Source: Amphiscolops sp. MND2022 (Eukaryota). From it: a stretch of DNA of 64,000 nt. The notes below the pieces were generated by a model, which did no database searches, had not been told where the DNA came from, and was given only the letters and a program-made list of their open reading frames with translations. Where the stretch lies: assembly GCA_964187785.1 (NCBI GenBank), contig OZ076409.1:38566001-38630000 (forward strand), in the 5' to 3' direction. The position numbers and the translations under genes were made by a program. Shown here piece after piece: positions 8,303 to 34,199 of this stretch. Position 1 is the first letter of the stretch; the number at the start of each line of letters is the position of its first letter.

Positions 8303-8798
8303 TTGCCGGCCCTGTTTTTCTCCCGAAAAACACTTTCGTAGAACATGGGTGCCAGTTTCACTACTGGTCTTTTGAGTTTTCCATCTTTTGTCACCACTGT
8401 CGCAGATCTAACTCTGCCGTCCCTTCCTTCTTGCCCTTCAAATACTATCGCCATCTTGTAGTTAGACCGCTTCACATTTTCATCCACGACCCAAACCAAA
8501 TCGTTGACTTTCAGCTGTCTCACGTCATCTTTGTTTCACTTATTACGCACATTCCACTCCGGCATATATTCTTTAGTCCATCTAGCTCAAATCATATCTG
8601 AATAAGCTTGCGACACTCGAAAAACTCGTCGCAAATCTGTGTAACGTTGAGCGTCTGGTAGGAATGGTGTGGCTAAATTAGCTCTTCCCATTAAAAAGTG
8701 GTTCGGTGTCAAAGCTTCCAAGTCATCAGGATCGTCACTAACACTAGTCAGTGGTCTAGCGTTCAACGTCTGTTCTACTAAACACATAGTTGTTATAA
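8263..8798 (-). pseudogene. C-terminal part of BEL/Pao element 1 integrase
   Basis: ITTMCLVEQTLNARPLT...LTPNHFL...GRDGRVRSATV continues the frame interrupted at 23948. Confidence 0.9.
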
Positions 8799-9000
8799 AG
8801 TAGTAGTGGAAATCCCGATACTGGCCAACAAAACGCCAAAAATTAAAAGTCCTCAAAACCATTGATTTTGAGGACTTTTTAGAAGACAAATCATCAAAAA
8901 CAGTGTTTTGCCATGAAGCAAAATTCATTAACCTCTATAGTTTAATGTCAACGTTGCAACCAGCGTTCAATGTGTAATGATAAAATTTTGCTGTATAACC

Positions 9001-9099
9001 AACGTTAATGCACAACCAACGTTATTGTACAACCAACGTTAATGTACAACCAGCGTTAATGTACAGCCAACGTTAATGTACAACCAACGTTAATGTACC
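9001..9099 (+). repeat. 17-bp tandem repeat in the TIR (aacgttaatgtacaacc, ~5.8 copies), mirrored in the right TIR
   Basis: Units start at 9001, 9018, 9035, 9052, 9069 and 9086. Confidence 0.9.
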
Positions 9100-9136
9100 G
9101 GCGCATACGTTATTCTTATATAACTCCAACTAACAT

Positions 9137-9397
9137 TGATTCGTCTCCCATAGCTTAGTGGTTATAGCATTGACTAAAGTTAAGGCTTCGGCCGGAGTGT
9201 TTGGGGTTCACTTCTATCCAACGTCCCCCAGTCTTTGTTACAACTTACATGCTATGGGAGAATAATCACCAATGGCACAGTTCTTAAAAAGGATAATCCC
9301 TGCTGTGGAAACTCTTAGTGGAACGGACTCCCGATGGGCTTTGAGTTTACCATAGGTATGCCAATACCAATGGCATGCCTATGGGTTTTGTATTTTT
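9137..9397 (+). ncRNA. Candidate structured Pol III (VA-like or tRNA-derived) RNA inside the TIR, with a second copy on the - strand in the right TIR
   Basis: A box TAGCTTAGTGG (9151-9161), near B box GGTTCACTTC (9205-9214), ggcUUCGgcc tetraloop (9184-9193), long stems and terminal T-runs. Confidence 0.4.
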
Positions 9398-9472
9398 ACC
9401 ACATGGGAAATAATTTTAGCCACGCACAGCTTCACACAACATTAATACACAACAATGAAAAATAACTAATAA

Positions 9473-9892
9473 ATGGCACAGCTTCACAATTACCTCTCAT
9501 TCAAAGACTTTGTTGAAAAATATGGATTAAAAAACGAAGCAACTTCCAATGTAAAAATAAAAGAAATACTTAATGAATTAAATATTCCATGTGGAATATA
9601 CATGAGAGATGATAAGTTTAACACTACCAGTGGTATAGTTAACTTACATCCCTCAGTGGGAACATATTGGGTTATGTTTACAAATCAAAATTATTTTGAT
9701 TCATATGGATGCCCACCCCCAACTAATATACTTAATCATAATAAAAATGGTATTTATTCAGAATATCAAATTCAGACCAACGACAGTTATTGCGCGGCGT
9801 ATTGTTTATACACACTGTATCTCACAAATAAAATTGGGTTCAAAAATGCAGTACTAAATTTATACTACCAAACTTTCAAACTTAACAAATGA
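9473..9892 (+). CDS. Adenain-like cysteine protease (PRO), catalytic His apparently replaced by Tyr
   Basis: IVNL...GTYW, YFDSYG, QIQ...YCAAYCL motifs. Confidence 0.9.
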   Translation: MAQLHNYLSFKDFVEKYGLKNEATSNVKIKEILNELNIPCGIYMRDDKFNTTSGIVNLHPSVGTYWVMFTNQNYFDSYGCPPPTNILNHNKNGIYSEYQIQTNDSYCAAYCLYTLYLTNKIGFKNAVLNLYYQTFKLNK

Positions 9893-10125
9893 AGAAAATT
9901 AATAATTATTCAACTCAATATAAAATTATCTCGCGCAGCTTTGCGACAGCTAACGCACAAAATTTCACGCACAGCTCCACAGAACAGCTTCACAATCAAA
10001 ATCAAAATCATGGAAAAAATACAACAATTTTGCGGAAGCTATCGCATAAGAAAACATTATCAAAAGATAGACAAGAATTTATAAATAACATTTCCGCTAG
10101 GGGATTCAAACATTTTAATCTATAA
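9889..10125 (+). CDS. Small basic hypothetical Polinton protein
   Basis: 78-aa ORF exactly filling the gap between the protease and penton genes. Confidence 0.5.
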   Translation: MKKINNYSTQYKIISRSFATANAQNFTHSSTEQLHNQNQNHGKNTTILRKLSHKKTLSKDRQEFINNISARGFKHFNL

Positions 10126-10128
10126 TAA

Positions 10129-11189
10129 ATGGATCTATCCACCTTCGTAACTTATGATAAAAAAGAATCTCTTCTTTTAAGTATTGCAAAATCCAATCAA
10201 GAAATTGTAGAAAATACTCATTCTAAACCACAAGAAACTCTAGAACTTAAAATGAATAAACAAAAAGAATCTTTCTCATTTGATGTTCCTCTCATTTTAA
10301 ATGAAAAATGGATGATGGGAGTAACAAGTTTAGAAGTATACAATACAGTTTATAATATCACTAACAGCAATAACAAACTACAGATTATTCTAAATGATCG
10401 ACAACTCGATGCACTTGAGTTTGACACGGGAGTGGTGCCAAATATAAAGAAGTTGTATGAAACTTATGATTTAGAAAATAATAAACTTTACTATGAATTT
10501 ATAGAAAAAGCTAATATATATTTACCTACTAGTTATAAAAAAAGAAGAAACTTCCGAAAAAAGATTTTGACTATTTAAAGCAAATGAAGAGCAACATTCC
10601 TATAACTATTCCAAACTTTGAAATTGAGAATGAGTTTATTGATATAAATTTAGTTCCAGGTGTATACGAGTTGATTGAAATAAATAACACCATAAAACAA
10701 ATAATTACTGATTCAGGTTATGAATTAGATGATAAGTCAAAATTCAAAAAAGATCTTACAGTTTTTAGTATTGATTTCAACATAATACCCGACACAAAAT
10801 CGATGAAATCAGTTTTAACAACCTCAAACCCTATTCATTTTAACTCCAAACTTAACAAAGTCCTGGGTTTTACACAACGTGATTACCCATCCGGAACTCA
10901 CACTTCAGAAAAACCAGTCATGATAACAACCACCGACAAAGTTCATCTGAAGTGCGACTGTGTAGATGGTTCAATTGTTAATGGTATACGAGAACAAATT
11001 TTATTTTCTTTCAATTTAAGCGCACCTCCCGGATATAAAATTATAAAAGAACCCACAACTGTTTTGTACAAATCAATTAACAAAACACGACTGGACACCA
11101 TTCAATTTTTCTTTGAGGACTCTAATCATGATTCAGTTGATTTCAACGGGGAGACACTCACCTTCACAATTCAAATTATTAAAATATGA
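10129..11189 (+). pseudogene. Minor capsid protein (penton), frameshifted near 10540-10580
   Basis: N-terminal FSFDVPLILNEKWMMGVTSLEVYNTVYNIT and C-terminal LKCDCVDGSIVNG...PPGYKI...VDFNGETLTF are Polinton penton-like, split over ORFs 10129-10578 and 10584-11189. Confidence 0.8.
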
Positions 11190-11256
11190 TGTTGGGCGAT
11201 AGCTTTCGCGATAGCTTTCACGAAGCTCCACAAAAATGATAATTTTTTTTCAATAA

Positions 11257-11733
11257 ATGAGTTATAATAAATTTATAAATAATTCATATTGTGTTGGTGG
11301 AAAACACTATTCTCCCACCACAAATATTCATGGAGAAATTACAAACACTGGGATACAGATGGGCAGGCCCGTACACACATTACGTGGCAACTGCATGATA
11401 TGTAACAGAAATAAGAGTCTAATTGTATCTGAACGAACAATAGATGGGGAAGGATTGGGAGACTTTTTCAAACATTTAGGTTCTGCAGCCAAAAATGTTG
11501 GAAAGAAAATACTCAATAATCCAGGCCGCGCACTAGAAATAGCAGCAAATATTGGAACTGCAGCAGCAAGTAAAAATCCACGAATAATTGCCGCAACTGC
11601 CCCTGACGTTATTAAATTTGTTCATCAAGGGAAGGGGTTATACAAAGCTGAAGGTTTGTCGAGTAAAGGCAGCAAAGCAGGCAGCAAAGCAAGTAAAGGG
11701 GGTAAAGGCCTGTATCTGGGGAAAATCCACTAG
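11257..11733 (+). CDS. Putative core or membrane-lytic protein (Cys-containing N-terminus, GxG cleavage-like sites, amphipathic helix)
   Basis: YCV...CMIC, IDGEG-LGDFFKHLGSAAKNVGKKIL, two GKGL, basic tail. Confidence 0.6.
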   Translation: MSYNKFINNSYCVGGKHYSPTTNIHGEITNTGIQMGRPVHTLRGNCMICNRNKSLIVSERTIDGEGLGDFFKHLGSAAKNVGKKILNNPGRALEIAANIGTAAASKNPRIIAATAPDVIKFVHQGKGLYKAEGLSSKGSKAGSKASKGGKGLYLGKIH

Positions 11734-11759
11734 TTAGATTCATTAAATAAATTTAATAA

Positions 11760-12824
11760 ATGTATTCAATTCACACCCGAGATGACTTGGAAAAATTAAA
11801 AAAATTACAAGAAACAAAATCTTCAGTACGCAAAGAAAGATTAAAAGAGAAACTAGGGGAGCAAGACTTTCATTATGACCTTGAAGAAGTTTTTGAACCT
11901 GTCACTACAAAACAGGTGGAATCAAATGAAAAACAAATACAAGCCATTGACAAACAAACCCAAGGGGTTACACAAGCAAATGAAAATCAGACAAGAGCAA
12001 TAGAACACAATAATAATATTCTTCGCGTAGCCATGCAAAATTCTTTTAAAGAAGGAATAAAACAATATAATGAAATTACAAATCATAATAATCAGCTTCT
12101 TACAAGTCTTGTTAATTCCAACAAGGTTGATTCTAGTATTGTAAAAACAGTTTCTAATTTACTTAATGACAAAAACAAAAGTCAATTTAGTTTAGAACCA
12201 ATTACGCAGAGCTTCGCACAAGACAATCCTAATTTATTCACAATTAATACCCATAACCCACAACAAGTACTAATTAAAGGTTCAACAATGGTTTTCGAGA
12301 ATGGGAATTCATATGATCTTAGTAACCCAGATCTTCAATATTTTATAACTAATACACAATTTGACAAACAAATAAATAACTGGGACTCAATTTATAACTT
12401 CTTAAATAATATGAAATATGATCTAAATTATGGAGATAAAAAATCAATCAGATATCAATTTATTAAAGAATTATACTCTCGCTATCAATTGCAGGGCTAC
12501 ACGCAAGGCTTCGCACAGGGCTACACACAAGCACATGATTTGCAGGGCTTCGCACAGGGCCAATCACAGGGCTTCACAGGAAGTGGATTAAATGGCGAAA
12601 GCTATCGCGAAAGCTATCGCGAATATTCACAACAGTACATTTTCCTCCCATCTGACCCAGACGAATTAGTGGATCAATTGAAACTACTTTATTTTGAAAA
12701 AGTTGGAGGAAATGATAGTTTTTTGATTAATGAACAAATTATTGCAATTATAGACAAGTTATTGGAGTATGAATGCATATCACCTTCTCAACACCAAAAT
12801 ATACGAAGCAACTTGATCTCCTAA
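11760..12824 (+). CDS. Conserved Polinton hypothetical (core-like) protein
   Basis: 354 aa, coiled-coil N-terminus, GSGL, and the C-terminal FLPSDPDELVDQLKLL...GGN...IIAIIDKLLE motif recurrent in Polintons. Confidence 0.7.
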   Translation: MYSIHTRDDLEKLKKLQETKSSVRKERLKEKLGEQDFHYDLEEVFEPVTTKQVESNEKQIQAIDKQTQGVTQANENQTRAIEHNNNILRVAMQNSFKEGIKQYNEITNHNNQLLTSLVNSNKVDSSIVKTVSNLLNDKNKSQFSLEPITQSFAQDNPNLFTINTHNPQQVLIKGSTMVFENGNSYDLSNPDLQYFITNTQFDKQINNWDSIYNFLNNMKYDLNYGDKKSIRYQFIKELYSRYQLQGYTQGFAQGYTQAHDLQGFAQGQSQGFTGSGLNGESYRESYREYSQQYIFLPSDPDELVDQLKLLYFEKVGGNDSFLINEQIIAIIDKLLEYECISPSQHQNIRSNLIS

Positions 12825-12840
12825 TCTCCTCACGAAGTCC

Positions 12841-13950
12841 CTAATTACTTAAAGGATCAGTTTGTGGATTGAAGATCTTGTAATTTGGATTAGATTCATT
12901 ACAAATCCTGTACCTACTCCCATTTTTATCTTCCAATCTGTTTATTAAAAGGTAGTTGAATTTTTCGTTCCATGCTTCTCTGCACAAACTTTTGAATTCC
13001 TCATAAGACATATCAAAACCTGATATGTCCCTATGAATATGTTCTACATCTTTCAGTGTTTGTTGAAATAAAATTATTATATTCGAATTGTTCCTAACTG
13101 TCTTTTTTGGTGCATCAAAATAACTCTGACATAAATAATAAACATCACAAGATTTGTGTCTTCCCCTAGTAAAAAATGGATCAATCAATTTCTGGTTGGA
13201 GTTCAACATATCATCAAATACTACACAACACCCCCTATACTCTTCCAAATCCCCCACATTTTCTTCCACTTCTATTCCTTGAATATAAAGCTCCACATCC
13301 TCATATTGTTCTGGACTCCTTGTAATGATACGAATTTGTTTCTCTGGATCTTCCAAACGAATCAATCGTAATTTATTCAACAACAAATGAGTCTTACCAC
13401 AAAATGATGGGCCAACTATTAATGTTCTATTAGTTTCGTTCACACCACTATTAGCATTAGCTCCCGCGTTAGCTCCCGCATTATCATCATTAGCGATAGC
13501 TTTCGCGATAGCTTTCGCGTTAGCTTCCGCATTATTATCATTATTATTATCATCATTATTATTATTATGTGTGCGGTAGCTATTGCGGTAGCTATCGCGA
13601 AGCTGTGTGGGAAGCAAGTCACCCCCGGTATTAATATTTGTGCGAAGCTGTGCAGTTGTGTGCGAAGCTGCGAATGCTCCTGCGGCAGCTTTCGCGCGAT
13701 TATAATGCTGATGCAAGTGTTGCTTCTTGATGTGTGACCTTAAATGACTTTTATTTAATTCCTTATTACAAAATTCACACCTCACCTTTTTATTAAAACA
13801 CACTTTGCATGAATTGTACATTTTACCATTTTTGTATGAATAAAAAGTATTACAATTCTTCATAATATTACATTCCTTACATCTTTTTTTATTACTACAA
13901 TCATCACACAAACTTTTTTCACTACTTTTATTACAAATTAAGCAATTCAT
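12841..13950 (-). CDS. A32/FtsK-like packaging ATPase 1 with N-terminal zinc fingers
   Basis: Walker A GPSFCGKT, Walker B VVFDDM, RGRH, LCQSY. N-terminal CxxC pairs and C2H2 (CEFC...HIKKQH). Confidence 0.92.
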   Translation of the reverse strand: MNCLICNKSSEKSLCDDCSNKKRCKECNIMKNCNTFYSYKNGKMYNSCKVCFNKKVRCEFCNKELNKSHLRSHIKKQHLHQHYNRAKAAAGAFAASHTTAQLRTNINTGGDLLPTQLRDSYRNSYRTHNNNNDDNNNDNNAEANAKAIAKAIANDDNAGANAGANANSGVNETNRTLIVGPSFCGKTHLLLNKLRLIRLEDPEKQIRIITRSPEQYEDVELYIQGIEVEENVGDLEEYRGCCVVFDDMLNSNQKLIDPFFTRGRHKSCDVYYLCQSYFDAPKKTVRNNSNIIILFQQTLKDVEHIHRDISGFDMSYEEFKSLCREAWNEKFNYLLINRLEDKNGSRYRICNESNPNYKIFNPQTDPLSN

Positions 13951-13959
13951 TTATTTAGT

Positions 13960-14250
13960 AAAAAATCACTAAATTCATCTAAGAATCACTCAGTATCACT
14001 ATGTAATCACTATGTAATCACTATGTAGTCACTAAGCAAATTTCACTAAATCACTAAGGTTTCACTAAGTGTCTGTAAGGGTATTTATTTCTCTAAGATT
14101 AAAAATTATAGTGAAATTTAGTGAAAATAAAAGCTCTTAGTGAAACCTTAGTGATTCTTAGAGGAATTTAGAGAAATTTAGAGATCACTAAGAATCACTA
14201 AATAATCACTAAATAATCACTAATCACTAAATAATCACTAAATAATCACT
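13960..14250. repeat. Internal TCACTAA direct/inverted repeat array
   Basis: More than 15 (A)TCACTA units. Perfect 21-bp inverted repeat at 14049-14069 and 14136-14156. Confidence 0.9.
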
Positions 14251-15490
14251 AAACATTATTTAGCTTATTTTTAGTAAAGTTTTTTGCATGATCATAAATT
14301 AACTTCTTGAAGTCCTCTTTAACTGAATCACTAATTAGTGGTTTTTGCATACGCTCAACGTAGTTGTCTATTTTGGATTCATTTACTTTAATATTATTTT
14401 GTTTGCAATATGCTACATAATAATAAGCTATGTTGAGTGGTGTTATTTCAATTGTCTGGTCGGACATTTCCTCTAAGAAAATTTTGAGTTTGTTGTATTC
14501 ATCACCAGTGAAAAAGTAACTTTCATAAGCAACAAGTTGTTCTGGACCCCATTTACTTCGTTTGCTCGAATCATAAGTTAAGTTGTACTTGTTGTTTAAT
14601 ACCTTGTATTTCTGACTCCTTGTGTCAAATTCAATTATACCATATTCTAACAGATCGCGGTAGTATTTCCAATTAAACCCGTCTTTGATCGCGGAAGCTA
14701 ACGCATAAGTTTGTACAATCGACTCGAAGAAGTTATCTGGGTTATTAATTGTTAAGTATATTTTGAAGCAATTTTCCCTCACGATTGGAAGAACATCCTT
14801 TGCATAGTGAGCAAGGTATATCACTTGAATCCCCAAGTGTCTACCAAATCGGAAAAGGTCTTCTACTTTTGTTTTAGGACTTTTGTATGCACCTGCATCA
14901 TCCAGTACAACAATTTTATTAGTAAGTGATTCAATACTAACTTTCTCCAACTGCAGTAGTGGTACAAAATTTTGAGAGGGAAACTCACGTTCATCTCGCC
15001 CGAAAACTACGTAATTTCTTTGGCGTGAGCTATCGCGAAGCTCTGCAACTTGTGCCAAATAATGCTTTAAAGAACTTGTCTTCCCAGAGCCACTACTACC
15101 ATAAATTATGAAATGCGCGTTGCAATGAGAATTGTTATGTGAGTTGTTGTTTTGCGTAGCTTCGCGTGTATCCTGGGGGGCTTCGCGTTCCTGGTTTGTC
15201 AGATGAGAGTATTTGAACCCTGCAAATTGTAGTAGTTTTTTATAAATTGTTTTAAACTGTCTAGGACGAATATAATTCCAATATATTACAACAATAATAC
15301 CTATAAATATAATTAAACATACAATAAACATAGGATTTGTGATTACTTTATAAATTCGTGTTTTCTGATACCAATTGGCCGCGCCAGCTCCCGCGCCAGC
15401 TCCCGCGCCACCTCCCGCGCTAGCTTTCACGCCGGCTCCTTCACCTTGATAATTATTTCTATAGCTCTGCAAGCAATAATCATTATTCAG
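14249..15490 (-). CDS. A32/FtsK-like ATPase 2 with N-terminal transmembrane helix (start codon appears as CTG at 15490)
   Basis: Walker A GSSGSGKT, Walker B VVLDDA, FGRH. Hydrophobic MFIVCLIIFIGIIVVIYW segment. Confidence 0.85.
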   Translation of the reverse strand: MNNDYCLQSYRNNYQGEGAGVKASAGGGAGAGAGAGAANWYQKTRIYKVITNPMFIVCLIIFIGIIVVIYWNYIRPRQFKTIYKKLLQFAGFKYSHLTNQEREAPQDTREATQNNNSHNNSHCNAHFIIYGSSGSGKTSSLKHYLAQVAELRDSSRQRNYVVFGRDEREFPSQNFVPLLQLEKVSIESLTNKIVVLDDAGAYKSPKTKVEDLFRFGRHLGIQVIYLAHYAKDVLPIVRENCFKIYLTINNPDNFFESIVQTYALASAIKDGFNWKYYRDLLEYGIIEFDTRSQKYKVLNNKYNLTYDSSKRSKWGPEQLVAYESYFFTGDEYNKLKIFLEEMSDQTIEITPLNIAYYYVAYCKQNNIKVNESKIDNYVERMQKPLISDSVKEDFKKLIYDHAKNFTKNKLNNV

Positions 15491-15513
15491 TTATTTATAA
15501 AAAATTGTTATAA

Positions 15514-16386
15514 ATGAACATGAATCAAAAGGCGGAGCTTTGCAAAGAGCAGATTGCTAAAGAAATATTCTCTCCTGTAATCAAGAAGTCTCAAAGAATT
15601 CAAATACAAACTCACTATAAAGATGAATGTTGGAGTATCGATTTAATTGATCGCTCAAACTTAAGCAAATACAACAAAAACTACAAGTTTATTTTCACAA
15701 TAATTGACATTCATACCAAATATGCATGGGCGATTCCCCTCAAAGATAAATCAGGAAAAAGTACAACTACTGCTTTAAAAAGTCTCATTGAAAAAGAAAA
15801 GAGAAAACCACACAAAATTTGGAGTGATAGAGGTAAAGAATTTTACAACACAACATTTTTACACTATTTAAAAGAGCAAAACATTCAAATTTATTCAACC
15901 CATTCGGATTTGAAGGCTGTTTTTGTTGAACGTTTCAATAGAACACTTCTGGACTTAATCAAAGAACCAATGTATATTGAGGGTAAAGGTAACTGGTTGA
16001 ATCACCTTGATGCTGCTTTGGATAAGTATAATAATAGGGTGCATGGTACAACAAAAATGACACCTTTTGAAGCGAATAAAAAACCAATAGATCCACCTAC
16101 CTTTGTTAATAAACTGAAACAACCCAAATTCCAAGTGGGAGATTTTGTAAGAGTTCCTGACAAAAGGAACATTTATTCAAAAGGTTATACAACAAATTGG
16201 AATAGAGAACTTTTTAAAATACACAGCATCAACAAAACAAACCCAGTAACATACACTCTAAATGATGAAAATGGAGAAATTATTCAAGGAAAATACTATG
16301 AACAAGAACTTTTAGGAAGCATATTCGACTTTGACTCTAACAACAAAACGTTAGAAAGTATGAATATTTTCCACAAGTTTGAGTAA
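15514..16386 (+). CDS. Retroviral-like (rve) DDE integrase of the Polinton
   Basis: WSIDLID, WSDRGKEF, VERFNRT, KGYTTNW. Intact ORF with no C-terminal chromodomain visible. Confidence 0.95.
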   Translation: MNMNQKAELCKEQIAKEIFSPVIKKSQRIQIQTHYKDECWSIDLIDRSNLSKYNKNYKFIFTIIDIHTKYAWAIPLKDKSGKSTTTALKSLIEKEKRKPHKIWSDRGKEFYNTTFLHYLKEQNIQIYSTHSDLKAVFVERFNRTLLDLIKEPMYIEGKGNWLNHLDAALDKYNNRVHGTTKMTPFEANKKPIDPPTFVNKLKQPKFQVGDFVRVPDKRNIYSKGYTTNWNRELFKIHSINKTNPVTYTLNDENGEIIQGKYYEQELLGSIFDFDSNNKTLESMNIFHKFE

Positions 16387-16419
16387 TTTTCCACGTTTCA
16401 CAATAATTTTCTATTATAA

Positions 16420-17655
16420 ATGAACACAGATATGTTTTCTTTAAAAAATAAATACACTCTTGAAAAACCTTTTCATGAAATTGATTTCATAAAGTATAGT
16501 CCAAGTAGTTTGGCGACAATTAACAATACAAACTCGAATACTACAATTAGTTTCCCAAGAGAAGATGCATACATATGTTTACAAAATAGTTTCATAAGTC
16601 CAGAATTTGAAGTACTTAAAAACAACGACTCAAGATACACCAACGGTGATGAAATTGGATTGGTTAACTTTGGGCCAATCTCTCTATTTAGTGAAGCCAA
16701 ATTAACAACTTCTAGTGGGAAACACCTAGAAAAAGTTGACAATTTGCACTTGATTTCTTTAATGTATAAACTTCTAACAAGCACTAGTCAAACTTCCCAG
16801 TTATTGTATGGGTTTGAAGAAAGCGAGACTATCAGAAGACAAGAACTAACAAACAACAAAAATGAGAAAGGAACCTTTTTTGTGAGAATAAAACTAAAAG
16901 ACTTGTTTGGATTTGCTGATCAAGAAAAAATAACTTACGGTTTGGGCTACACTCTTACACTCAAACGGAACACTAACAATGACGCCATTTTAAGAAGTGT
17001 TGGAGTGGATGCTGCAAAAGTGGTTATTAAAGACATTGGTTGGTATATCCCACACTATGTTCCCAGTATCGAAAACCAACAACTTGTCATGGACCAAATT
17101 CTAAATAAAGATACAACCGAATTGAGTTACACGGAACGAATTATTTTTAGAAAAGATGTTAACACGAATTCGAATTGGACATTTGAATTAGGCAGCGCAG
17201 GCGAGTCCTGTCCAGCTTTTGTGATTGTTGGATTTCAAGCTAGAAATAAAATTGATTCTCAGGTTCATGATAATGCAGTGTTTGACCGGTTGCCAATTAG
17301 TAATGCTGTTTGTAAAATAGGATCAGAAAAATATCCCGATGATGGGATAGAATGTGATTACGACCGCGACAAATATGATCAAGCATATAGTGAAATTGAA
17401 AACTTTTATCACTTGAATAGTGAAACTAACTTACTCAACCCATTTATTGATTTGAACAAATTCAGAACAAATTATAATTTTTATGTATTTGACCTCAGCA
17501 AACAAAGGGATATCATTGCGAGTCAACCAATCCGTTTAGAATTTAAATTTAATGCTGCCATTGATGTAGCAGATTATATAGCTTATGCACTTGTATTAAC
17601 CCCAAAACTAATAAGTATTAGTAGTGATGGGCAAAGGCATTTTGACCTCATTTGA
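16420..17655 (+). CDS. Major capsid protein (double jelly roll)
   Basis: 411-aa beta-rich ORF with LFSEAKL...G..LE, CPAFVIVGFQ, KYP, YVFDLSKQ and IRLEFKF, characteristic of Polinton MCP. Confidence 0.88.
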   Translation: MNTDMFSLKNKYTLEKPFHEIDFIKYSPSSLATINNTNSNTTISFPREDAYICLQNSFISPEFEVLKNNDSRYTNGDEIGLVNFGPISLFSEAKLTTSSGKHLEKVDNLHLISLMYKLLTSTSQTSQLLYGFEESETIRRQELTNNKNEKGTFFVRIKLKDLFGFADQEKITYGLGYTLTLKRNTNNDAILRSVGVDAAKVVIKDIGWYIPHYVPSIENQQLVMDQILNKDTTELSYTERIIFRKDVNTNSNWTFELGSAGESCPAFVIVGFQARNKIDSQVHDNAVFDRLPISNAVCKIGSEKYPDDGIECDYDRDKYDQAYSEIENFYHLNSETNLLNPFIDLNKFRTNYNFYVFDLSKQRDIIASQPIRLEFKFNAAIDVADYIAYALVLTPKLISISSDGQRHFDLI

Positions 17656-17689
17656 TTTGATATGAGAGGAATGATGAATCATAGATTAA

Positions 17690-17790
17690 TAATTATAAAT
17701 GATGATAAATGATAATAAATGATAATGCTAATATTATAATAAATGATGATAATAAATGATGATAATAAATGATATTTCTAATTATAAAAG
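17690..17790. repeat. (aataaatgatgat)n low-complexity repeat between the convergent MCP and pPolB genes
   Basis: Visible tandem array containing several AATAAA. Confidence 0.75.
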
Positions 17791-17857
17791 ATGTGTGTGA
17801 AAGCTATCGCGAAAGCTATCGCGAAGCTGTGCGTCACGCCAGTTATCACGATAGTTA

Positions 17858-20800
17858 TCACAATAAATGGGCCCGATCACTTATCAGATTTAAAAGCTGT
17901 TGATGATTCAATTTTTCTTTCAGAGTCCAAATGTTATAGTATATTTCTTCATCTGGGAGGGGCTTTGCAGGGCACCCATCATCCGTTTCACTTGTGCTCT
18001 GTTCGGTGTAATACAAGCCAACTAATTTTATACAAAGTATACAAGGACAATCACCTTTTTGTGTGTGTTTATCCCATGATAAACTTTGTATTGGATTCAA
18101 GTACATACGCTTGTCATCAAAAGGATTCAAAGCTAGCTTATCTTGTTTCTGAACAGTTAAGTTGTGAGCATTACTTCTAATAGCATAATTAGTTGCAGTT
18201 GTTGTTTCAGAGTTAAATAATGAATTTATAAATTGTGAATAAATTGGTGTATGTTGTATTGCTTTTTGTTTTGACTTTTGCGTTAGCTTTTGCGTTAGCT
18301 TTTGCGTTGCTTTCTGAACTGTGTTTCCATAGCTAAAAGAATATGATTTAGATCTCAAAGCTACGAAGTTGTATAATTCAATAATTGGTGATGTTTCTAT
18401 TTTCATTTTACCTATAACTTTCTTGTTGATTGAGTTGTACAACTCATGACTTGGGTCGAGCTCGCTGAAATCAAAATCATCTTTGAAGTATTCCAAATCA
18501 TTTATAAGGTCTCCAGTTTTAATACTTAGAATGAATGAGTCTGTATCCATGTAATGCAGTTTAATTTTATTGTTATATTATGGTTGTAATTTGTGATAAT
18601 AAAACTCATACATTAACAATTTACTCAGTTCTAAAACACTAAACCCCAAGTATACTGGTTTATCAAAAAGTACTTTTTCCTTATCAAACTTGTAAACACT
18701 GAATTCGGAGTAATGATAAGTGATTCCTTTAAAGCTTAACTTCGATTGTCTTTTTATTATTTGATCAATGTTGGTGTGAGGGATAAACTCTAAATTAGTC
18801 CGGTCTCTAACATTTTCCATAGTCTTACCAAAGAAAGCGTTGTTCATTACTTTGTACAAATCCTTCTCAAAGTTTGTTTTTGCTTTGGTGCGTTTTTGTG
18901 TGTTATGATTAACGTATTTTTCTAACCAAAGTGATTGTTTGAACCGGTAGATTGTGTGAACCTTTATTACTTTCATCCCGATCTGGGTGTAAAACTTGAA
19001 CATCCTGTAGTGCATCATATAATTATATTTATTTGTTAGGTCACACATAAGTTTCTCGGTTGGTTTGTAGTTGGATTGTTTTACACTGTTCATGTATTCT
19101 GAGAAAAGATTTGTTCGGCTTTTGTTTGATGAGGACAAAGTGGAAAGTTTTCGGTTTTTTCTTTAATTTCTGCTGGATATTCTAAATCACATTCTATAAA
19201 GTATCCAAATTCATTGTCATCTGGTGTATTCAAAATGTCTTCTGTAATTTCATTCATCAGTGCAGAATCATATTGCATAGCTTCGTGACAGTTCTGCGCG
19301 AAGCTACGCATCTTTTTAAAGTCTCCAGTAGGAAGGTATTGACTCATTGCCCATCCATACAAGTTATTTGCATCAATGTACAGTAATTTAGTATTTTCAT
19401 TTGACTCAATGAATCTGGGACCCATAACACTTGAAATTCCTCCACGTATATTGTTTTCTAAAAGTAATAATAATTCTTTACATTTTATATAATCTAATTT
19501 AATTTTAGTAAGTTTTAAACCAGCTTTCCATGTATAACCAGGTAAAGAGTAACTGTACAAAGGATTGATGCCGTATTCAAGTGTAGACTTCTCAACAAAG
19601 TTTTCGAACACGTCAGTGAGTTGTAGTACATCCATTTTTAAGTACAATTCTGTTAGTTCTTGTGCTGTTGTAATGTTGTAAGTGTCAATCAATTGTTGGG
19701 TTCTTTTTATATCATCCTCACATGGGTGAGATTGTGTTAATGTTGACCAATAGTCCTCTTTTGTTAGATTTAGTGGTTCATGCAGGTTGTTAAGATTGAA
19801 TTTTTCGTATGGATAAGCTAGTTTTTTCTTAAATAAATCATCAGTTAGGCCCTCATTTTGCATATAAGGAAAATCATTCAATGATGTTATGAGTTTTTGT
19901 AGACTACTACTCAAAAATCTGTATGAATCTAAAAACCTTAAACAACCTACTTGCACACTTACATAATTTTCCATTGACTTTGGTATAATATTTATTGGTA
20001 ACTTTAGATTATAAGCTGATGTTAAGAGTTCTTCAAAAATTAAATGACAATCATAACCACTGAAATTATGGAAAAATATAGGAACAAACGAACTTGACTT
20101 TTTTTTACAATTTAAATTACATTTGTTGTGGGCCGCTCCTCGGTACTTGCCTGTAAGGTGATCATGATCTCGAACGTTATCCTCACCGTCTAACTTTCGT
20201 TCGCAAAGCCAACACACTTTGGATTGTTGAAATGATTGGTGTTCTTCAGGAGTTATTTCAAGAGGTAAATTTGTTCAAAATAGTTACTAGCAATGTTTTC
20301 TAGAGTCAACATTTCATTTACAAACCATGTTACACACGATTCACCAAAGTATGAGCTGTAATTATTACCAAATGGTGAAATCATATAAAATCCTACTGCA
20401 ATTGGAATTTGTTTAAATAATACTTTGGGGTCGTCTGTTGGTTGATTAATGCATTCGAAATCTGCATATACTCTCATTGGTATGGGAACTTTCATATGAT
20501 AATCTTCGAACTTTAAGTGATCCTTCCAACTGAATGAGATATTAGTTGGTTGTTGTTTTTGACAACGGTCAATGTGTTGACTGAGAATATCCTCAGAACT
20601 AAATGCAGTTAGGCATCTTCTACACACCCATTTCTTGTGCGAATCCTTATTTATTAGACAATGCAATTTTGTCATTAAGCAATAGTGATTTTGATATAAT
20701 AATAAATCTATTTGTGGTTGATCATAGTTTGTGTTGGTATGGATTGGTGTTAAAACTGTTTTTGTGAGTTCAAATACATTTACGTTTAAATTATTTAAGT

Positions 20801-21722
20801 TTTCGAACTTGGGAAAATCTTTAATTTTCATGGGGAATTCTAAACCATTTAAAATGAGTTTGTTCGTGTGCATTGAATAATTTGATGTTCTATTTTTATG
20901 ATCCTCAACGGGAAAAAGGTGTGCTAGGATGCACCACAAAAAGCAAAATTGATCATCATTTTTTATATTTATAATTGATTTATTATTCTTATATTTTTCT
21001 GGCAACTCAACCCATGAAGAAACTTGAATATCATTGACTTTATAAATTTCTAATATAACATTGACAATACCGTTTAACACAAAACCTGATCCTTCTAATT
21101 GTTCATCATCTAATTTCTGCATTAATATGTTGTGAATATTTGGGTTTGCGCCGAAGGCAATCTGCGTGTGATTGTAATTAAAATCTGATTTAACCCATTT
21201 GTGAAATACAATTTCTTCTCCACTAACTATTTTTGAAAACTTAGCTAAATAACTCAATTGGAACTTGTATCGGGGAAAGTAATTTTTATTTAGTAAATCA
21301 TTAATCTGTTCTTCAAGATGATTTGTTGGATTTACTCTCAGTTTAATGTATGTTTTTTCATTCACAATTATTTCTACGCCAGTTCCTACGCCAGTTCCTA
21401 CTCCATGTAGTGTATTACCAAATGCGTTTTTTGTAGCATTGTTTTGACTTCTTAACGTGTGAATTTCACTTTGGAAATGTCTTGAATTACTTATATATTT
21501 GCCACAATCTTCACACCAATTTTGTGTAGCTTCGCGTTGTTGTTTGGTTTTGTTTTTATGTTCATCTGAATTTAGATGATTAGACTTGTCAGACAATGGC
21601 ATAAATGTATTACATTTTTTACAATAATATTGATTTAATTTTTGTAAATGTTTTATTGATTTTAGATGATCAGACTTGTAAGCTTTTTTATAATCAGAAT
21701 TACAAATACTGCAGTTCTCCAT
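17858..21722 (-). pseudogene. Protein-primed DNA polymerase B with N-terminal zinc fingers and an endonuclease VII-like insert, disrupted by two frameshifts and one stop
   Basis: YADFE, HNFSGYD, DANNLYG, KxxxNAFFGK, YMDTDS, KSY, RDHDHLTGKYRGAAHNKCN. Breaks near 20270, near 19115 and TAA at 18578-18580. Confidence 0.95.
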
Positions 21723-21819
21723 TTATTTATAATAAAATTATGAATTTAATAGCAGCATATTTTTCAATTATTAGTGTTAAGTTTTATTTTATTTTTTGTG
21801 TTAATATTGAATAAATTAA

Positions 21820-22509
21820 TTATAAAAAATTGTGTGGTTTAAGTGGTAATGTTGGTGGTGTGTGTGAAGCTGTGTTAGCTGTCGCGTTAGCTGTCGTGTG
21901 TGAAGCTACTTGTGATTTTGTATGCGAAGCTGTGCGCGAAGCTGTGCGTGATTTTGTGTGAATTTCCTGTGAAGCTACCTGATAATTTTCAAATTGATTC
22001 ACAAATCGGCGATATTCTTTTTCATCTATATGATTATCTTTTAGGCTAGTAACATAAAGTTGTCTAAAGTTGTCAAGAGTCTTCTGAATAATAGTGTACT
22101 TAAGTTTATAATTTTGCTCCTTTTTCTTCAAATAACTGGAACAAATCTTAACAAGAATACCAGTTGTACAACCAACTCCTGCAGCGATTGGAACAACTAT
22201 AATACCCACACCAGTAATACTTAGTGAGATTGATGCTGAAGTGGTTCCAATCACTATAATGCCATCGAGGGAGTTAATTAGGTTATTTATTAGCTTGTAT
22301 TTGTTGTATTTCTGTTTGTATTTCTTTTCTTCCATTTCATAATATTTCATCATTAGACTAATGTTTTGAATAGAATTATTGAAGCTATTTACTTTTTGTA
22401 ATTCGTTTTGCAACGCGCTTTGCAATCGCTTATTTATCATTGATTCTACATCATATGGTGCGGGGGGAGAGGCCGTTGGGGTCAGGGAGGGATAGAGTTT
22501 TTGTTCCAT
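21820..22509 (-). CDS. Polinton membrane protein (coiled coil plus hydrophobic hairpin)
   Basis: GIIVIGTTSASISLSITGVGIIVVPIAAGVG hydrophobic segment, SLKDNHIDEKEY, N-terminal LYPSL. Confidence 0.75.
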   Translation of the reverse strand: MEQKLYPSLTPTASPPAPYDVESMINKRLQSALQNELQKVNSFNNSIQNISLMMKYYEMEEKKYKQKYNKYKLINNLINSLDGIIVIGTTSASISLSITGVGIIVVPIAAGVGCTTGILVKICSSYLKKKEQNYKLKYTIIQKTLDNFRQLYVTSLKDNHIDEKEYRRFVNQFENYQVASQEIHTKSRTASRTASHTKSQVASHTTANATANTASHTPPTLPLKPHNFL

Positions 22510-22512
22510 TTA

Positions 22513-23328
22513 TTAATCATATAAAATGAAATTTATTTCCGTTGGTGTTAATTTCATTCTGTGTTTCATATCAACAAGGTCTTTAAAATTGTCTTTTTTC
22601 AATGTCTCCAGAATTGATTGTCTGGTAGAATATTCTAAATCAGACAGATAATATTCACCATCTGAAGTAGGTATTGTTTTTCCATACTTTTCCTTTAAAT
22701 AGGATTCACTAAAAGTTAGATAATTTGCAAAAGCTTGATTTTTATTGGGAAAGGAATCGAACAAACCTTTGTCATAAAGCAGTTGAATTATGTTGTTAGT
22801 TATAGTAATTTTATTTTGATCTAGGCTATTAAGAATATTATTTATTTCATCTTCATTTAAAATCATTCCAGCTTGACCCACCTGACTCATAAACTTTAAA
22901 TTACGGACTGTTAACATTTCAAAACTATTGTTGTGTATTAAATTTAGTACCTCATTTACTAAAGCAGTTCTTTGTTCGGCGAAAGATTTTTTCATACTTT
23001 GTTCTAATTTATTTATGGTTTTTGAAAGGTCTGAAAACTGGGAATAAATATCATTCATTACCTTTGTGTTTAATAAAACATCTTGAATTTCCTGTGGGTC
23101 TAGTGTTTGATGCGCCTTCGCGATAGCTTTCGCGTCTAGCATTTTTTCTTCTACTTGATTTTCTATGTCATTTTCAAAATCGCGTTGCAAATCTTCTTTC
23201 AATTTGGAATGTGTTATTTGGGCTAGTTTTTCTTGACTTTTTATCATATCTTTTAGCTCCTGATATTCCCTCAGTTTTAGCTGTTCACTAGAATAACCAA
23301 ACTTATGAAGAGACGGAGTTTCATACAT
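22513..23328 (-). CDS. Hypothetical helical protein
   Basis: 271-aa intact ORF with the same ATAAATG start context as the other Polinton genes. Confidence 0.7.
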   Translation of the reverse strand: MYETPSLHKFGYSSEQLKLREYQELKDMIKSQEKLAQITHSKLKEDLQRDFENDIENQVEEKMLDAKAIAKAHQTLDPQEIQDVLLNTKVMNDIYSQFSDLSKTINKLEQSMKKSFAEQRTALVNEVLNLIHNNSFEMLTVRNLKFMSQVGQAGMILNEDEINNILNSLDQNKITITNNIIQLLYDKGLFDSFPNKNQAFANYLTFSESYLKEKYGKTIPTSDGEYYLSDLEYSTRQSILETLKKDNFKDLVDMKHRMKLTPTEINFILYD

Positions 23329-23348
23329 TTATTAAGATGAAAAAGTTG

Positions 23349-23947
23349 AAAAATACAAAACCCATAGGCATGCCATTGGTATTGGCATACCTATGGTAAA
23401 CTCAAAGCCCATCGGGAGTCCGTTCCACTAAGAGTTTCCACAGCAGGGATTATCCTTTTTAAGAACTGTGCCATTGGTGATTATTCTCCCATAGCATGTA
23501 AGTTGTAACAAAGACTGGGGGACGTTGGATAGAAGTGAACCCCAAACACTCCGGCCGAAGCCTTAACTTTAGTCAATGCTATAACCACTAAGCTATGGGA
23601 GACGAATCAATGTTAGTTGGAGTTATATAAGAATAACGTATGCGCCGGTACATTAACGTTGGTTGTACATTAACGTTGGCTGTACATTAACGCTGGTTGT
23701 ACATTAACGTTGGTTGTACATTAACGTTGGTTGTGCATTAACGTTGGTTATACAGCAAAATTTTATTATTACACATTGAACGCTGGTTGCAACGTTGACA
23801 TTAAACTATAGAGGTTAGTGAATTTTGCTTCATGGCAAAACACTGTTTTTGATGATTTGTCTTCTAAAAAGTCCTCAAAATCCATGGTTTTGAGGACTTT
23901 TAATTTTTGGCGTTTTGTTGGCCAGTATCGGGATTTCCACTACCACT
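23349..23947 (-). repeat. Right terminal inverted repeat of the Polinton (599 bp)
   Basis: Reverse complement of 8799-9397. Confidence 0.95.
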
Positions 23948-26900
23948 TTTTAAGGACGTCGTCGGTCAAGGATCGCTCAACCAATACAGCTATCATTGCT
24001 TTTTTTTAACTTCGGACTAATCGTTCCCAGATTCCTCCAAAATGAGGGGCTCCAGGGGGGTTGATTTTCCACTTCATGTCTTTTTGAGCTAAAGACTTCT
24101 CAATGGCTGACTGATCCCATGCATTTATACAATCTCTCATTTCTTTTGCTGCACCCACGAAGTTTGTCCCATTGTTGCTCAAAATTTTAGCAGGTTTACC
24201 TGTTCGGGCAATAAACCGTGTAATAGCAGTTAGGCAGGTCTCTGCTTCCAAGGAAGGAACAACTTCAATATGTACTGCTCTAGTCGTCAAACATGTGAAG
24301 AGACAACACCATCTCTTCATAGTCTTACGCTTAATTTTCACTTCAAAGGGACCAAAATAGTCAACTCCAGTGTTAGTAAAGGGGAATACTCGTTCCTGCA
24401 ATCTCTCTCGTGGTAAATCAGCCATAATTGGTTGAGACACTCCAGCTCGTTGCTTTCTACATTTAACACATTTCGCTTTGACGTTCCTCAAAGCGTTTCG
24501 TAATCCAATAATCCAGTATTCTTGCCTCAGAACACTTCTGACGTATTCTGTGCTTTCATGAAAATTCGCTCGATGAGCATCTTCAATCAACTTGATGACT
24601 ACATAGTGCTTTGCTGACTACAAGATCGGATGTTTGACCTCATAACTTGATCTTGAATGCTGCAGTCGGCCATGTAGTCGCAGCAATCCATATTCGTCCA
24701 GAAACGGCGATAACTTATTCAACTGCTCTGAAGCCGACAACGGCTGCCCTTTGTAGATCTTCTCGTAGGCATCATGAAAACTTTCCTTCTGACAACGCTT
24801 CAGAGCTGCCAGTTTTGCCGCATTGAGTTCTTCAACTGTCAGAATTCCTTCGGATTTATTTTCCTCCATCTATGGCAGTATGACAGCACTCGAATTATTT
24901 TCTTGAAAGAACTAAATCTTTCCCATTCGAATGGTGGTTCCATTACACCAGCTTCCATGACTGGTTCAGGGTCTTCTCGAATGCTAAATTGCAACCTTCC
25001 AGGCGCCTTAGGCCTGGCGTCTTCTGTCTCGGTGAGCCCGCTGGCCCTGTGAGCCAATCACTTTCCTTTAGGGCTTCAACTGTCATTCCTCGAATTCCAT
25101 TGTCAGCAGGATTCAGTTTTCCTTCAACATGCCGCCATTGATCGATAGTTGAACTTTCGAGAATTTCAGCAACGCGGTTTGCCACAAAGACCGGTTGTTT
25201 GTTGTTACTTGCGTGGAGCCATTGTAGGACCGTCGTTGAATCTGTCCAATGTGCAATTTGGTCTACTTCATTATCATGTTCTTCCAAAATATGCTCTCGC
25301 AGTCTTACTCCAAAAACTGCTGCCTGCATCTCCAACTTAGCCACTGTCATGTTTCGTATTGGAGCTACTCTACATTTGCCAATCACAAAGGCCACTTCGC
25401 CATTTTATTACTTTCTCAAATAGGCAACCATACACATTGCTTCCAACGAAGCGTCTGAGAAGATATGTAGATCTACTTTGTTCACACCTGACTCAAAATA
25501 TGTTCTTTTGAGGGCCATTTTGTTCTCATGTATCATATCTGATGCCCATTTCTTGAATTCATGTCGGTTTTCTTCAGTCAGTTTTTTATCCCACGACTGT
25601 CCGTTCTCCTTCCATATTGTTTTCAGTAGCAGTCGCATTCTTATGGTGAAATGAGACACTATTCCCAAAGGGTCGAATACAGCTGAAACATGGGATAACA
25701 CCGCTCTCTGCGTTATCTTCACCGGCATCTCCTTCTGCATGCCTCTGCAGACTTCCAGATTATCTGCGTCATCGTTCCATTGCAGTCCCAAGTTGGCTCC
25801 GCTTCAAAGGTTTTACTAGAGGACGGTGACTTGTCTGCTTCGTCAGTAGACATCATAGTCTGTTCGCAGTTGGTAATCCATTCTGTCAAGTGAAAGCCTC
25901 CCCTTGCCAACATCGCTCTCAATAATTTGTAGATTTCAATGGCCTGCTCCGCGCTGGGAACAGACTTGACAAAGTCATCCATATAGAAGTTTCGCGTTAT
26001 CAGTTTAGTAATTTGTGGGGACTCGTGTGCGTTATCTTTGGCAACTTGTTGCAGAGCAAAATTAGCGCAAGTTGGCGAGCTTTTGGCTCCGAAGATATGT
26101 CTTACATACTAATACACCTTAATGGGTTCATTTGGATTGTCTCTCCATAGAAATCTCAACACTTTACAATCTTTTGGTGGTACTTTCACTTGTAGGAACA
26201 TCGCCTCAATGTCAGCAGTGATGGCGATCTTTTGTTCTCTAAACCTGAAGATTATTCCAATCAGATTCTGTAGTAGGTCCGGCCCTGTCAAGAGGTTATC
26301 GTTCAAGGAAATTCCACGGAATTTGGAGGCTGCGTTGCACACTCGCCTCACTTTTCCCGGTTGGTTTGGATTTTCTACTGGGTGATGTGGAACATACCAC
26401 TGTCTTTCCAATTTTGTAGCTTCTCATTCTTCCTGCTTTTTCAACATCTACTTTGATAGAGTCTTGATAGAAAATCTTCAACTCCGGTTTGTTTTCAAGT
26501 CTATACTCCAACGATTTCATTTGGCTCAATGCCGACGAATAATTGTTCGGCAAGAAGGGGTCATTTCTTTTCCAGAGGAGTCCAACTTCGTATCTTTCAC
26601 CATCAAACTTCGTGGTTTGTTCTAGCATCTGCAACGCTTTCTCGTCGTCCTTGGACCTTCCAGATAAATCGCAGCGGGATGCGTTGGACTCAATGTCCCA
26701 CCAAGTTTTATTCTGTTCTGCCAGCACATCATCTTCAGAAGCTGTTACGCAAGATGCAGTCATCTGCATAGCCTTTTGCTGTGGAAGTGGTCCACAGAGA
26801 GTCCATCCAAGTTTCGTTTTCACTGCCCAAGACTCATCATTCGTGCAGTTTTTATATTCTACAGGCCGATGTATATGGTAGCAGTTTTGTCCCAATATCA

Positions 26901-32662: not shown

Positions 32663-34199
32663 AACAAGACGCGAACGTCTAAAGCCGGCGCTATATCTAA
32701 GGCTCAAAAATCGCAAAACATTTTTTGGAAAAAGTTTTGTAATTTTTGAAAAAAAAATATCTTTCAAAAAAAGACGAATAGTGCCAAAAAATGTAGACGG
32801 GGGATCCTTTGGGATTTATTACCATACATTCAGTTGCAAAATATGAAAAAACTTGAAGGGGGGAACCTTTTGATCATTAAAATTTTTTTCGATTTTTTAG
32901 GCACGTCCAGTTTTGTAGGTTTCCTTGAAAAAGTGAAAAAATGAAAGGAAGGACCTCTTGGACTAAGTCTCCCCTGGCCGGACTTAGCCTCAGGTGCTCA
33001 GGTGGTTTCAGGAGTTTCTAAAAAGTGGACCGATCAGTGTGAGGATTGTAGTATGAAGAAAACAAGACGAGAACGTCTAAAGTCGGCGCCATATCTAAGG
33101 CTCAAAAAGCGTAAAACACTTTTTTTGGAAAAAATTGAAAGTTCTGAAAAAATTTTTTCTTTCAAAAGAAGTCGCATAGTGCCGAAAAATGTAAAAGGGG
33201 GGACCCTTCTGGATTTATTAACAAACATTCCGTTGCAAAATATCAAAAAACTCAAAGGGGGGACCCTTTGGGGACATTGAAAAATTTTTGAAAAAAAAGT
33301 CGCACAGTGCCGAAAAAAATCCAAAGGGGGGACCCTTGAGGCACGTCCGGTTTTGTAGGTTACGTTAAAAAAGTAAAAAATGAAAGGGGGGACCCTTTGG
33401 AGACAAAAAAATTCGGAAAAAACGTCGCACAGTGCCGAAAAAAATCCAAAGGGGGGACCCTTTGGGCTCGTCCGGTTTTGTATGTTTCCTTGAAAAAGTA
33501 AAAAATGAAAGGGGGGACCCTTTGGAGTGAAGTTTGCCTTGGGCGGACTTGGCCTCAGGTGCTCTGCTCAGGATTGTAAAAAGTGGACCGATCAGTGTGA
33601 GGATTGTAGTCTGAAGAAAAAAAAGAAAAAAAAGGTCACTGCAATAGTCGGGCTTTTTTCCTTAAAAGGAAAACGCGCCGACTAAAAACAAGACGGGATC
33701 GTCCCAAGTCGGCGCCATATCTTAGGCTCAAAAATTTCCAAGGAACAACTATTAGAAATATTTGGAAAAAAATATTTTTTTCCATAAAAAAGTATTTGTT
33801 AAAAAAGTCGCAAAATGCCGAAAAACCTAGAAAGAGGTCATTTAGGTTCATTCAAAAATTTCTACAAACCGAAAACTTCAAAAATATGCAAGGGGGTACC
33901 CTTTGATAAATTTCGAAAATTTTCGAAAAAAGTCGCAGAAAGCCGAAAAAACCCAAAGGGGTGACCCTTTGGTCTCACCTGTACTTTTGGAAAAATTGGT
34001 ATTAAAAAATTTATGGTTTAGTGCGAGAATCGAGCCAACGTTCTCTGGCTTGGTCGAAGAAGAACAAATATGAAAGATGAACAAATTGTAAGAAAAATGG
34101 ACCACTCAGAGTGAGATTGTCAACTGAAAAAAAAACAAAAAAACTACTCACTGTAAGAGTCGTGCTTTTTTCCTTAAGGGAAAAAGCGCCGACTGAAAA
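32663..34199. mobile_element. Three abutting Helentron-associated (HINE/DINE-like) non-autonomous repeats
   Basis: Units start aacaagac...ag(t/c)cggcgc at 32663, 33061 and 33687. The last two end in a hairpin plus gcgccgact (subterminal inverted repeat). Internal aaaggggggaccctt tandem repeats. Confidence 0.55.

Follow-up and report, generated by a model that had tools for sequence, protein, structure and literature searches.

What does a folded stretch with a tRNA-like head do at the inner end of both terminal inverted repeats (TIRs) of a Polinton? Polintons have so far been described by their proteins, and their TIRs have been treated as replication and integration ends. In the first-pass annotation, the stretch was taken for a structured, VA-RNA-like transcript made by RNA polymerase III (Pol III) that the element encodes in two copies.

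The element is 15.1 kb long and spans positions 8799-23947 of the window (the whole 64,000-nt stretch of DNA analysed), with no strand assigned. It was delimited by its inverted repeat and flanks, and it combines long TIRs, a short target duplication, an rve integrase, a double-jelly-roll capsid and an A32-type ATPase, as expected of a Polinton/Maverick; the three proteins are Pfam matches on its frames (rve, capsid, Pox_A32). An inverted-repeat search of the window placed the TIR arms at 8793-9397 and 23349-23953 (605 nt, 99% complementary), with six differences between left and right, every one upstream of 9030. The outermost six bases (8793-8798 and 23948-23953) agree at 5/6 and are likely a 6-bp target duplication. 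The frames for capsid, integrase and ATPase are open, whereas what is likely the DNA polymerase gene is split into four frames (17858-21722); we presume its identity from DNA polymerase B-like motifs, Pfam returning no match there. On the inside, the left TIR is adjoined by an ORF at 9473-9892 (+ strand), which we take from its motif to be an adenain-type protease and for which Pfam likewise gave no match, and the right TIR by a 271-aa ORF at 22513-23328 (− strand), found in the ORF list and examined with Pfam. The outer left TIR (8799-9116, + strand) varies among copies and includes a 17-bp minisatellite at 8992-9098; within it, a near-perfect 14-bp hairpin at 8845-8879 is followed by T5, and the outer TIR folds equally on both strands. 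The Polinton itself appears nested in a BEL/Pao-type LTR retroelement (8587-8928 and 24006-29795), with integrase and DUF1759 frames beyond its right end and one frame crossing its left end. Further along, a cluster of diverged 55-150-nt direct repeats at 32663-33962 is unrelated to it.

The unit of interest starts at TATATAA (9117-9123, + strand), a candidate upstream promoter element at a distance of 34 nt from the A box and 27 nt from the closing stem; conservation across lineages begins here, and several lineages have variants such as TATACAA. Closing the 5′ domain (9144-9261, + strand) is a stem of 11 bp, in which 9144-9154 pairs with 9251-9261 and which shows covariation from lineage to lineage. 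The A box (9151-9161, + strand) sits in a tRNA D-arm-like head and overlaps the 5′ arm of this stem, and the B-box-like element, GGTTCACTTC (9205-9214, + strand), identified by its motif and a 46-row alignment, follows 43 nt after the A-box end with one mismatch. Between them, at the place that the alignment rows assign to the variable arm of a class II tRNA, lies a 3-bp hairpin (9184-9193, + strand), the C(UUCG)G hairpin of the first-pass annotation. The 3′ domain of this version, type 1 (9276-9384, + strand), comprises three hairpins at about 9276-9307, 9309-9348 and 9350-9384; the pairing of 9309-9314 with 9343-9348 and the 13-bp hairpin at 9351-9383 with its single G-U, both noticed at first reading, are as described. 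A T4 at 9386 and a T5 at 9393-9397 (9386-9397, + strand) form the predicted Pol III terminator exactly where the TIR arm ends, at 9397. As had been claimed, the unit is embedded in both TIRs: an identical second copy occupies 23349-23629 (− strand) of the right TIR, points inward and has its A box at 23585-23595.

This stretch folds more stably than chance, with z of −5.21 on the + strand and −3.67 on the − strand and 0/200 shuffles as stable on either. Outer TIR DNA (8793-8990) also reaches about −3.6 on both strands, so that folding alone is not specific to the unit. From the A box to the first T4 the distance is 235 nt, and from the closing stem about 125 nt; the 242-nt body free of T4 has a P of 0.25, not significant taken alone. 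The Rfam check that had been suggested returned no match to the unit at gathering or E-value thresholds, nor did ARAGORN, and neither found a tRNA-gene cloverleaf with an anticodon arm and a T arm; folding and covariation favour a rod rather than a cloverleaf for the head. The same 11-nt A box recurs at 546, where a copy of a SINE-like repeat (506-803, 86% over 325 nt) accounts for it, the full form of that repeat having a tRNA-like head (L169).

Covariation across related TIRs, which the first reading had called for, was found. We aligned 46 representative rows after clustering at 97.5%, setting aside three truncated copies and one without the 3′ arm. Three closing-stem pairs have changed on both sides between lineages: 9149-9256 (C-G in 17 rows, A-U in 15, U-G in 9, unpaired in 5), 9150-9255 (A-U 28, G-U 13, G-C 5) and 9152-9253 (G-C 17, A-U 16, G-U 12, unpaired 1), two of the three through G-U intermediates (A-U, G-U, G-C). 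The stem has 44 cells with two-sided change, against 14.6 ± 3.1 in shuffled alignments (0/500 shuffles), while measures that count pairs or pair types do not rise above the shuffles (95/500 and 338/500). G-U cells outnumber A-C cells by 56 to 12, as expected if the + strand is the one that pairs; outside the stem this excess is weak (18 pairs with G-U, 14 with A-C), and one pair, 9173-9232, flips from A-U to U-A in three rows. The covariation of the stem rests mostly on two lineages, although some of its changes recur in three type-1 copies (L052, L105, L122), where they may be independent or recombinant. RNAalifold retains the inner seven pairs of the stem and proposes an interior different from our model, which leaves the interior fold of the 5′ domain unsettled.

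The alignment also trims two features of the original description. The 18-bp stem drawn between 9137-9154 and 9251-9268 with two mismatches exists in the window, but only 11 bp of it are conserved, the outer 5 bp being unpaired in 14-25 of the 46 rows; a suspected G-C repair of the 9143/9262 mismatch was not seen. The UUCG loop, present in the window, is likewise not fixed: counted with a C-G closing pair, it is UUCG in 20/46 rows and UUCA in 11. The B-box-like element reads C at a position occupied by A in host tRNA genes, a form shared by 36/46 rows, and the A of host B boxes occurs in just one copy among those listed; many rows were chosen through A-box or B-box anchors, so box invariance is partly built in. 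Four chimeric copies (L115, L116, L123, L154) have a mismatch in the closing stem, which indicates that recombination between TIR types occurs; such exchange can also inflate the apparent conservation of the unit.

The host genome (1.07 Gb) holds a very large family of these elements, as judged from 2,848 first-look candidates in a capsid search. A 24-nt pattern from the head has 486 exact matches, 243 per strand, against 0 for the reversed control, and among the 100 matches listed many form inward-facing pairs about 14-15 kb apart. We collected 109 distinct copies, a part of the at least 486 matches with overlapping duplicate loci left out; 105 of them lie at a Polinton terminus or are accompanied by a shared upstream TIR motif or the downstream terminal gene, and the other four look TIR-like by eye. 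Among 19 elements picked by their capsid gene alone, 11 have the unit, two lack it at both ends and one retains only the last hairpin and T run; the remaining five gave stretches without a match to the element's end and are uninformative. Three of three further capsid-picked elements have it. In a sister subfamily, B, whose capsid is 82-85% identical, ten elements (20 stretches) yielded no match to the unit, and the inverted repeats located in 6/10 pairs are shorter and different. The relatives without the unit still hold the same two genes next to their TIRs. Absence from both ends of two relatives and from the sister subfamily marks the unit as accessory and not required in cis.

Where the unit is present, TATATAA is the point at which lineages whose upstream TIR DNA is unrelated abruptly become alike. 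Of 14 copies picked by capsid, 13 are 94-99% identical to the window in the 5′ domain and 13 are 96-99% identical in the 3′ domain, as compared with 91-95% for the adjoining ORF (one copy having a 78-nt match only) and 80-93% for the outer TIR in the 13 that matched. At 7/7 ends of a distant lineage of a second type, described below, the 5′ domain is 85-92% identical and the adjoining gene 72-83%. The unit is therefore more conserved than its neighbouring genes, a difference to which recombination between TIR types could contribute. In 57 distinct copies (three of them mis-anchored), the type-1 3′ hairpins are well kept without two-sided changes, and the loop of the last one varies from 8 to 68 nt between 11-bp arms. 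Beyond this genome, a scan of viral and metagenome contigs with the head pattern gave 0 matches and a capsid-based search of viral contigs no related element; 11 metagenome contigs have capsids at 45-48% identity and, at 1.1-3.6 kb, are too short to be expected to include a TIR. Within the host genome, a 52%-identical capsid (P0121) used as query revealed no closer family. A near-palindromic short motif is repeatedly inserted in the TIRs and intergenic regions (L056-L070, L075, L082, L088 and window 12584-18306), and it lies at the edge of the deletion by which two elements have lost the unit.

In the second version, type 2, the 5′ domain is retained and the 3′ domain is exchanged for tandem hairpins, next to the same Polinton genes. 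A search with the type-2 3′ array alone found the 5′ domain upstream at 11/11 distinct loci among the 30 matches listed. One type-2 copy folds at z −5.79 on the + strand versus +0.28 on the − strand, and the energy gap between strands is 33 kcal/mol as RNA and 6 as DNA. Two G-U pairs are fixed in the inner 7-bp stem, and the loop is of the GNRA kind, usually GAAA or GUAA, in 28/42 distinct hairpin units. T4 runs are rare in the bodies, four being seen versus 33 expected in 13 copies (nine versus 38 with a fourteenth, L136, whose boundary overran the array); the tandem units are not independent, which weakens both the T4 and the GNRA counts. A T4-T7 run follows the last hairpin within 20 nt in 7/14 copies, and in the other 7/14 the next T run is at least 40 nt away. 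One array (L178, G000:C2:6654400-6658400) extends over 3.95 kb and counts 72 hairpins. A4 occurs 20 times in it and T4 not at all before a terminal T6; it is, in effect, a satellite born inside a Polinton TIR. Early T4 runs do occur, at +49 in both ends of one type-2 element, at +90 and +112 in those of another, and in several old type-1 copies, and in one old copy (L122) a type-2 hairpin unit follows the T5.

The head is likely of tRNA-related origin, from a tRNA or a SINE, as its sequence suggests. The boxes are spaced as in host class II tRNA genes (64 nt from the A-box T to the B-box end, versus 63 nt in host tRNA-Ser genes), and alignments of the head with tRNA-Ser and tRNA-Cys of the host and with a SINE head reach z 3.7-4.5. 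The best match among five tested, at z 5.6, is an orphan tRNA-like locus (L161, G000:C7:16053987-16054050) that has the same A box and spacing, a canonical B box and no linked Polinton. A single tRNA donor was rejected, Ser, Cys and the SINE head scoring alike. A C in place of A in the B box may weaken TFIIIC binding, for which the upstream TATA element could compensate; among the small number of host tRNA-Cys and tRNA-Ser flanks inspected, none had a TATA at the corresponding position. Long tandem tRNA-Cys(GCA) and tRNA-Ser(GCT)-like arrays with a spacing of about 200 bp lie on G000:C7 at ~38.64-38.71 Mb and on C9 at ~19.09-19.12 Mb.

Adenoviruses, which are related to Polintons, are linear double-stranded DNA viruses with protein-primed replication. 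What defines their VA RNAs, according to PMC7589676, is the presence of both boxes, A and B, together with a GGGU-ACCC pair and a terminal U4. Like VA RNAI/II as this source portrays them, the unit has internal A and B boxes, an A box in a terminal stem, a T-run end and a suspected tRNA origin. Its A box is canonical and its B box deviates once; the terminal stem with box A is the 11-bp covarying stem, which does not join the predicted 3′ end. Unlike in VA RNA, this stem closes the 5′ domain only and hairpins follow it, the unit is located in TIRs, and its predicted RNA has about 250 nt or more, as opposed to about 160 nt with four U right after the terminal stem. The GGGU-ACCC pair of the central domain is missing too, no ACCC occurring in 9137-9397. 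The label "VA-RNA-like" thus holds for the layout (A box in the terminal stem, B box inside, T run) and fails for the GGGU-ACCC pair, the predicted length and the extra 3′ hairpins; by the missing pair and the size, the unit is not a VA RNA, although by analogy its RNA may work like one.

Closer in another respect are the TMERs of murine gammaherpesvirus 68, presented in PMC4337559 and PMC4378190 as a tRNA-like head joined to stem-loops. The unit shares with them (PMC4337559) the tRNA-like head, a Pol III promoter and stem-loops downstream in a single predicted transcript, and, as stated there for TMERs, it is not essential for replication. It differs in that ARAGORN and Rfam find no cloverleaf in the head, where the long-range stem covers the acceptor position, and in that the type-2 hairpins are short and repeated, unlike pre-miRNAs. 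The Pol III pri-miRNAs of BLV and foamy viruses and the EBERs of EBV are further structured viral Pol III transcripts (PMC4378190), from different virus groups. Outside viruses, the TRIM element Cassandra keeps a 5S promoter in both LTRs, according to bioRxiv 10.1101/2023.07.14.548913; like the Polinton unit, it is a captured host Pol III promoter in both terminal repeats, with promoter-less relatives. However, Cassandra is a retroelement that needs an RNA intermediate, whereas the Polinton unit places its promoter, of tRNA type, in the TIRs of a DNA element and has a predicted terminator of its own inside the repeat. SINEs derived from tRNAs likewise join a tRNA-like head, with its A and B boxes, to an unrelated body, but no free copies of the unit occur among those sampled (105/109 at Polinton ends). 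The unit is, in sum, VA/TMER-like in design.

We predict that the unit is likely a transcribed Pol III RNA gene. The two-copy structured RNA gene envisaged at first gains support from the covariation of the closing stem, from conservation above that of neighbouring genes and from the strand-specific, RNA-like 3′ domain of a second lineage, usually ended by a T run. Two unrelated hairpin-rich 3′ domains, both usually bounded by a T run, stand behind one promoter domain, the pattern expected of a transcription unit selected at the RNA level; neither a docking site nor a replication origin nor a passively carried SINE relic needs two such domains. A DNA docking site for TFIIIC and Pol III, acting as a chromatin barrier with RNA as a by-product, would nonetheless fit the kept A and B boxes and the presence of the unit at both boundaries of the integrated element. 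Barriers formed by tRNA genes are established in yeasts and animals, and PMC4337559 allows for a cis effect of a Pol III promoter even in TMERs. We consider this reading unlikely, since a docking site needs neither the pairing of the A-box region with a stretch 100 nt off nor conserved 3′ hairpins, let alone a T4-poor array of G-U/GNRA hairpins. It is improbable, too, that Pol II uses TATATAA as its promoter, with the folded stretch as a shared 5′ leader, such as an IRES, of the two TIR-adjoining genes. Selection at the RNA level would be expected there as well, the TATA lies 27 nt before the closing stem and the TIRs point into ORFs that start 75 nt (left) and 20 nt (right) further in; but such a leader would contain ten upstream ATGs from 9144 up to the start of the protease, would need to accommodate an expansion of 3.9 kb and has no need of an A box, a B box or a final T run, and the relatives without the unit have the same two genes beside their TIRs.

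Less probable still is a role for the hairpins in DNA that is single-stranded while strand-displacement replication proceeds, or as repeated sites to which packaging or integration proteins bind. Single-stranded DNA is believed to become exposed at the TIRs as Polintons replicate, the outer TIR folds well too, and so does the minus strand of type 1 (z −3.67). Against this, two close relatives lack the unit at both ends and the ten elements sampled from subfamily B gave no match to it, although all are integrated with intact-looking termini; the two strands differ strongly when folded as RNA and little as DNA, and the promoter boxes would be left unexplained. Least probable in our estimate is a captured tRNA-derived SINE or tRNA gene relic, spread passively by homogenisation and recombination of TIRs. 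The head does align with tRNA-Ser, tRNA-Cys, the SINE head and the orphan locus, the unit is dispensable, and a recent block can spread by recombination. Yet 105/109 copies are at Polinton ends and the other four TIR-like by eye, likeness to the sampled SINE ends after the D arm, and the compensatory changes, together with conservation above the coding neighbours, point to selection; an origin from a tRNA or SINE is likely, passive carriage is not.

Returning to the Pol III RNA gene, we propose a mechanism in which TFIIIC and TFIIIB would bind the boxes and the TATA element, and host Pol III would start near 9138-9144 and stop at 9386-9397, giving a transcript of about 250 nt (300-600 nt for type 2). 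The old tRNA arms would be refolded into a rod. Two copies per genome, multiplied by hundreds of insertions, could provide a high RNA dose, and the repeated hairpins might then bind a host protein, for instance Dicer or a RIG-I-like sensor, and titrate it away. Granted an RNA gene, the chances of such a decoy or counter-defence role are, by analogy, about even, the main alternatives being small-RNA production or binding of the element's own proteins. The role is suggested by the analogy with VA RNA, EBERs and TMERs and the repeated equal hairpins of type 2, and also by dispensability in cis and by the host itself, which encodes both a RIG-I C-terminal domain and a Dicer domain. Taken as a whole, the account we lean towards is that the conserved, tRNA-headed unit is a folded non-coding RNA gene, made by host Pol III and acting in trans as a decoy for RNA-binding defence proteins. 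More tentatively, Polintons may in general encode their own Pol III counter-defence RNA, with a fixed tRNA-derived promoter and scaffold, a swappable and expandable 3′ hairpin array, and two copies per genome.

If true, virus-like transposons related to adenoviruses would have evolved, independently, their own counterpart of adenovirus VA RNA, and units with A and B boxes at Polinton ends may form a gene class that is widespread and has been overlooked. We found no report of a Pol III or VA-like RNA in Polinton ends in the open-access literature, judged by titles and abstract openings, with subscription journals and Repbase outside this scope; the candidate gene is likely a viral Pol III non-coding RNA type, in two versions, not so far reported for Polintons. 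If the TIRs do contain a conserved RNA gene, the gene set of Polintons would come to include a non-coding one; this would also bear on the tRNA-gene origin of VA-type RNAs and offer a testable route to very high copy number against host silencing. Type-1, type-2 and unit-less lineages coexist in one genome, so that they can be compared without engineering. Among the individual elements, we also noted two in which the TIR and unit are tandemly duplicated over 1.5-1.8 kb (L107, L108), and a young subfamily with near-identical capsid scores in which only the last hairpin and T run stand before the protease gene (L072:3250-3283).
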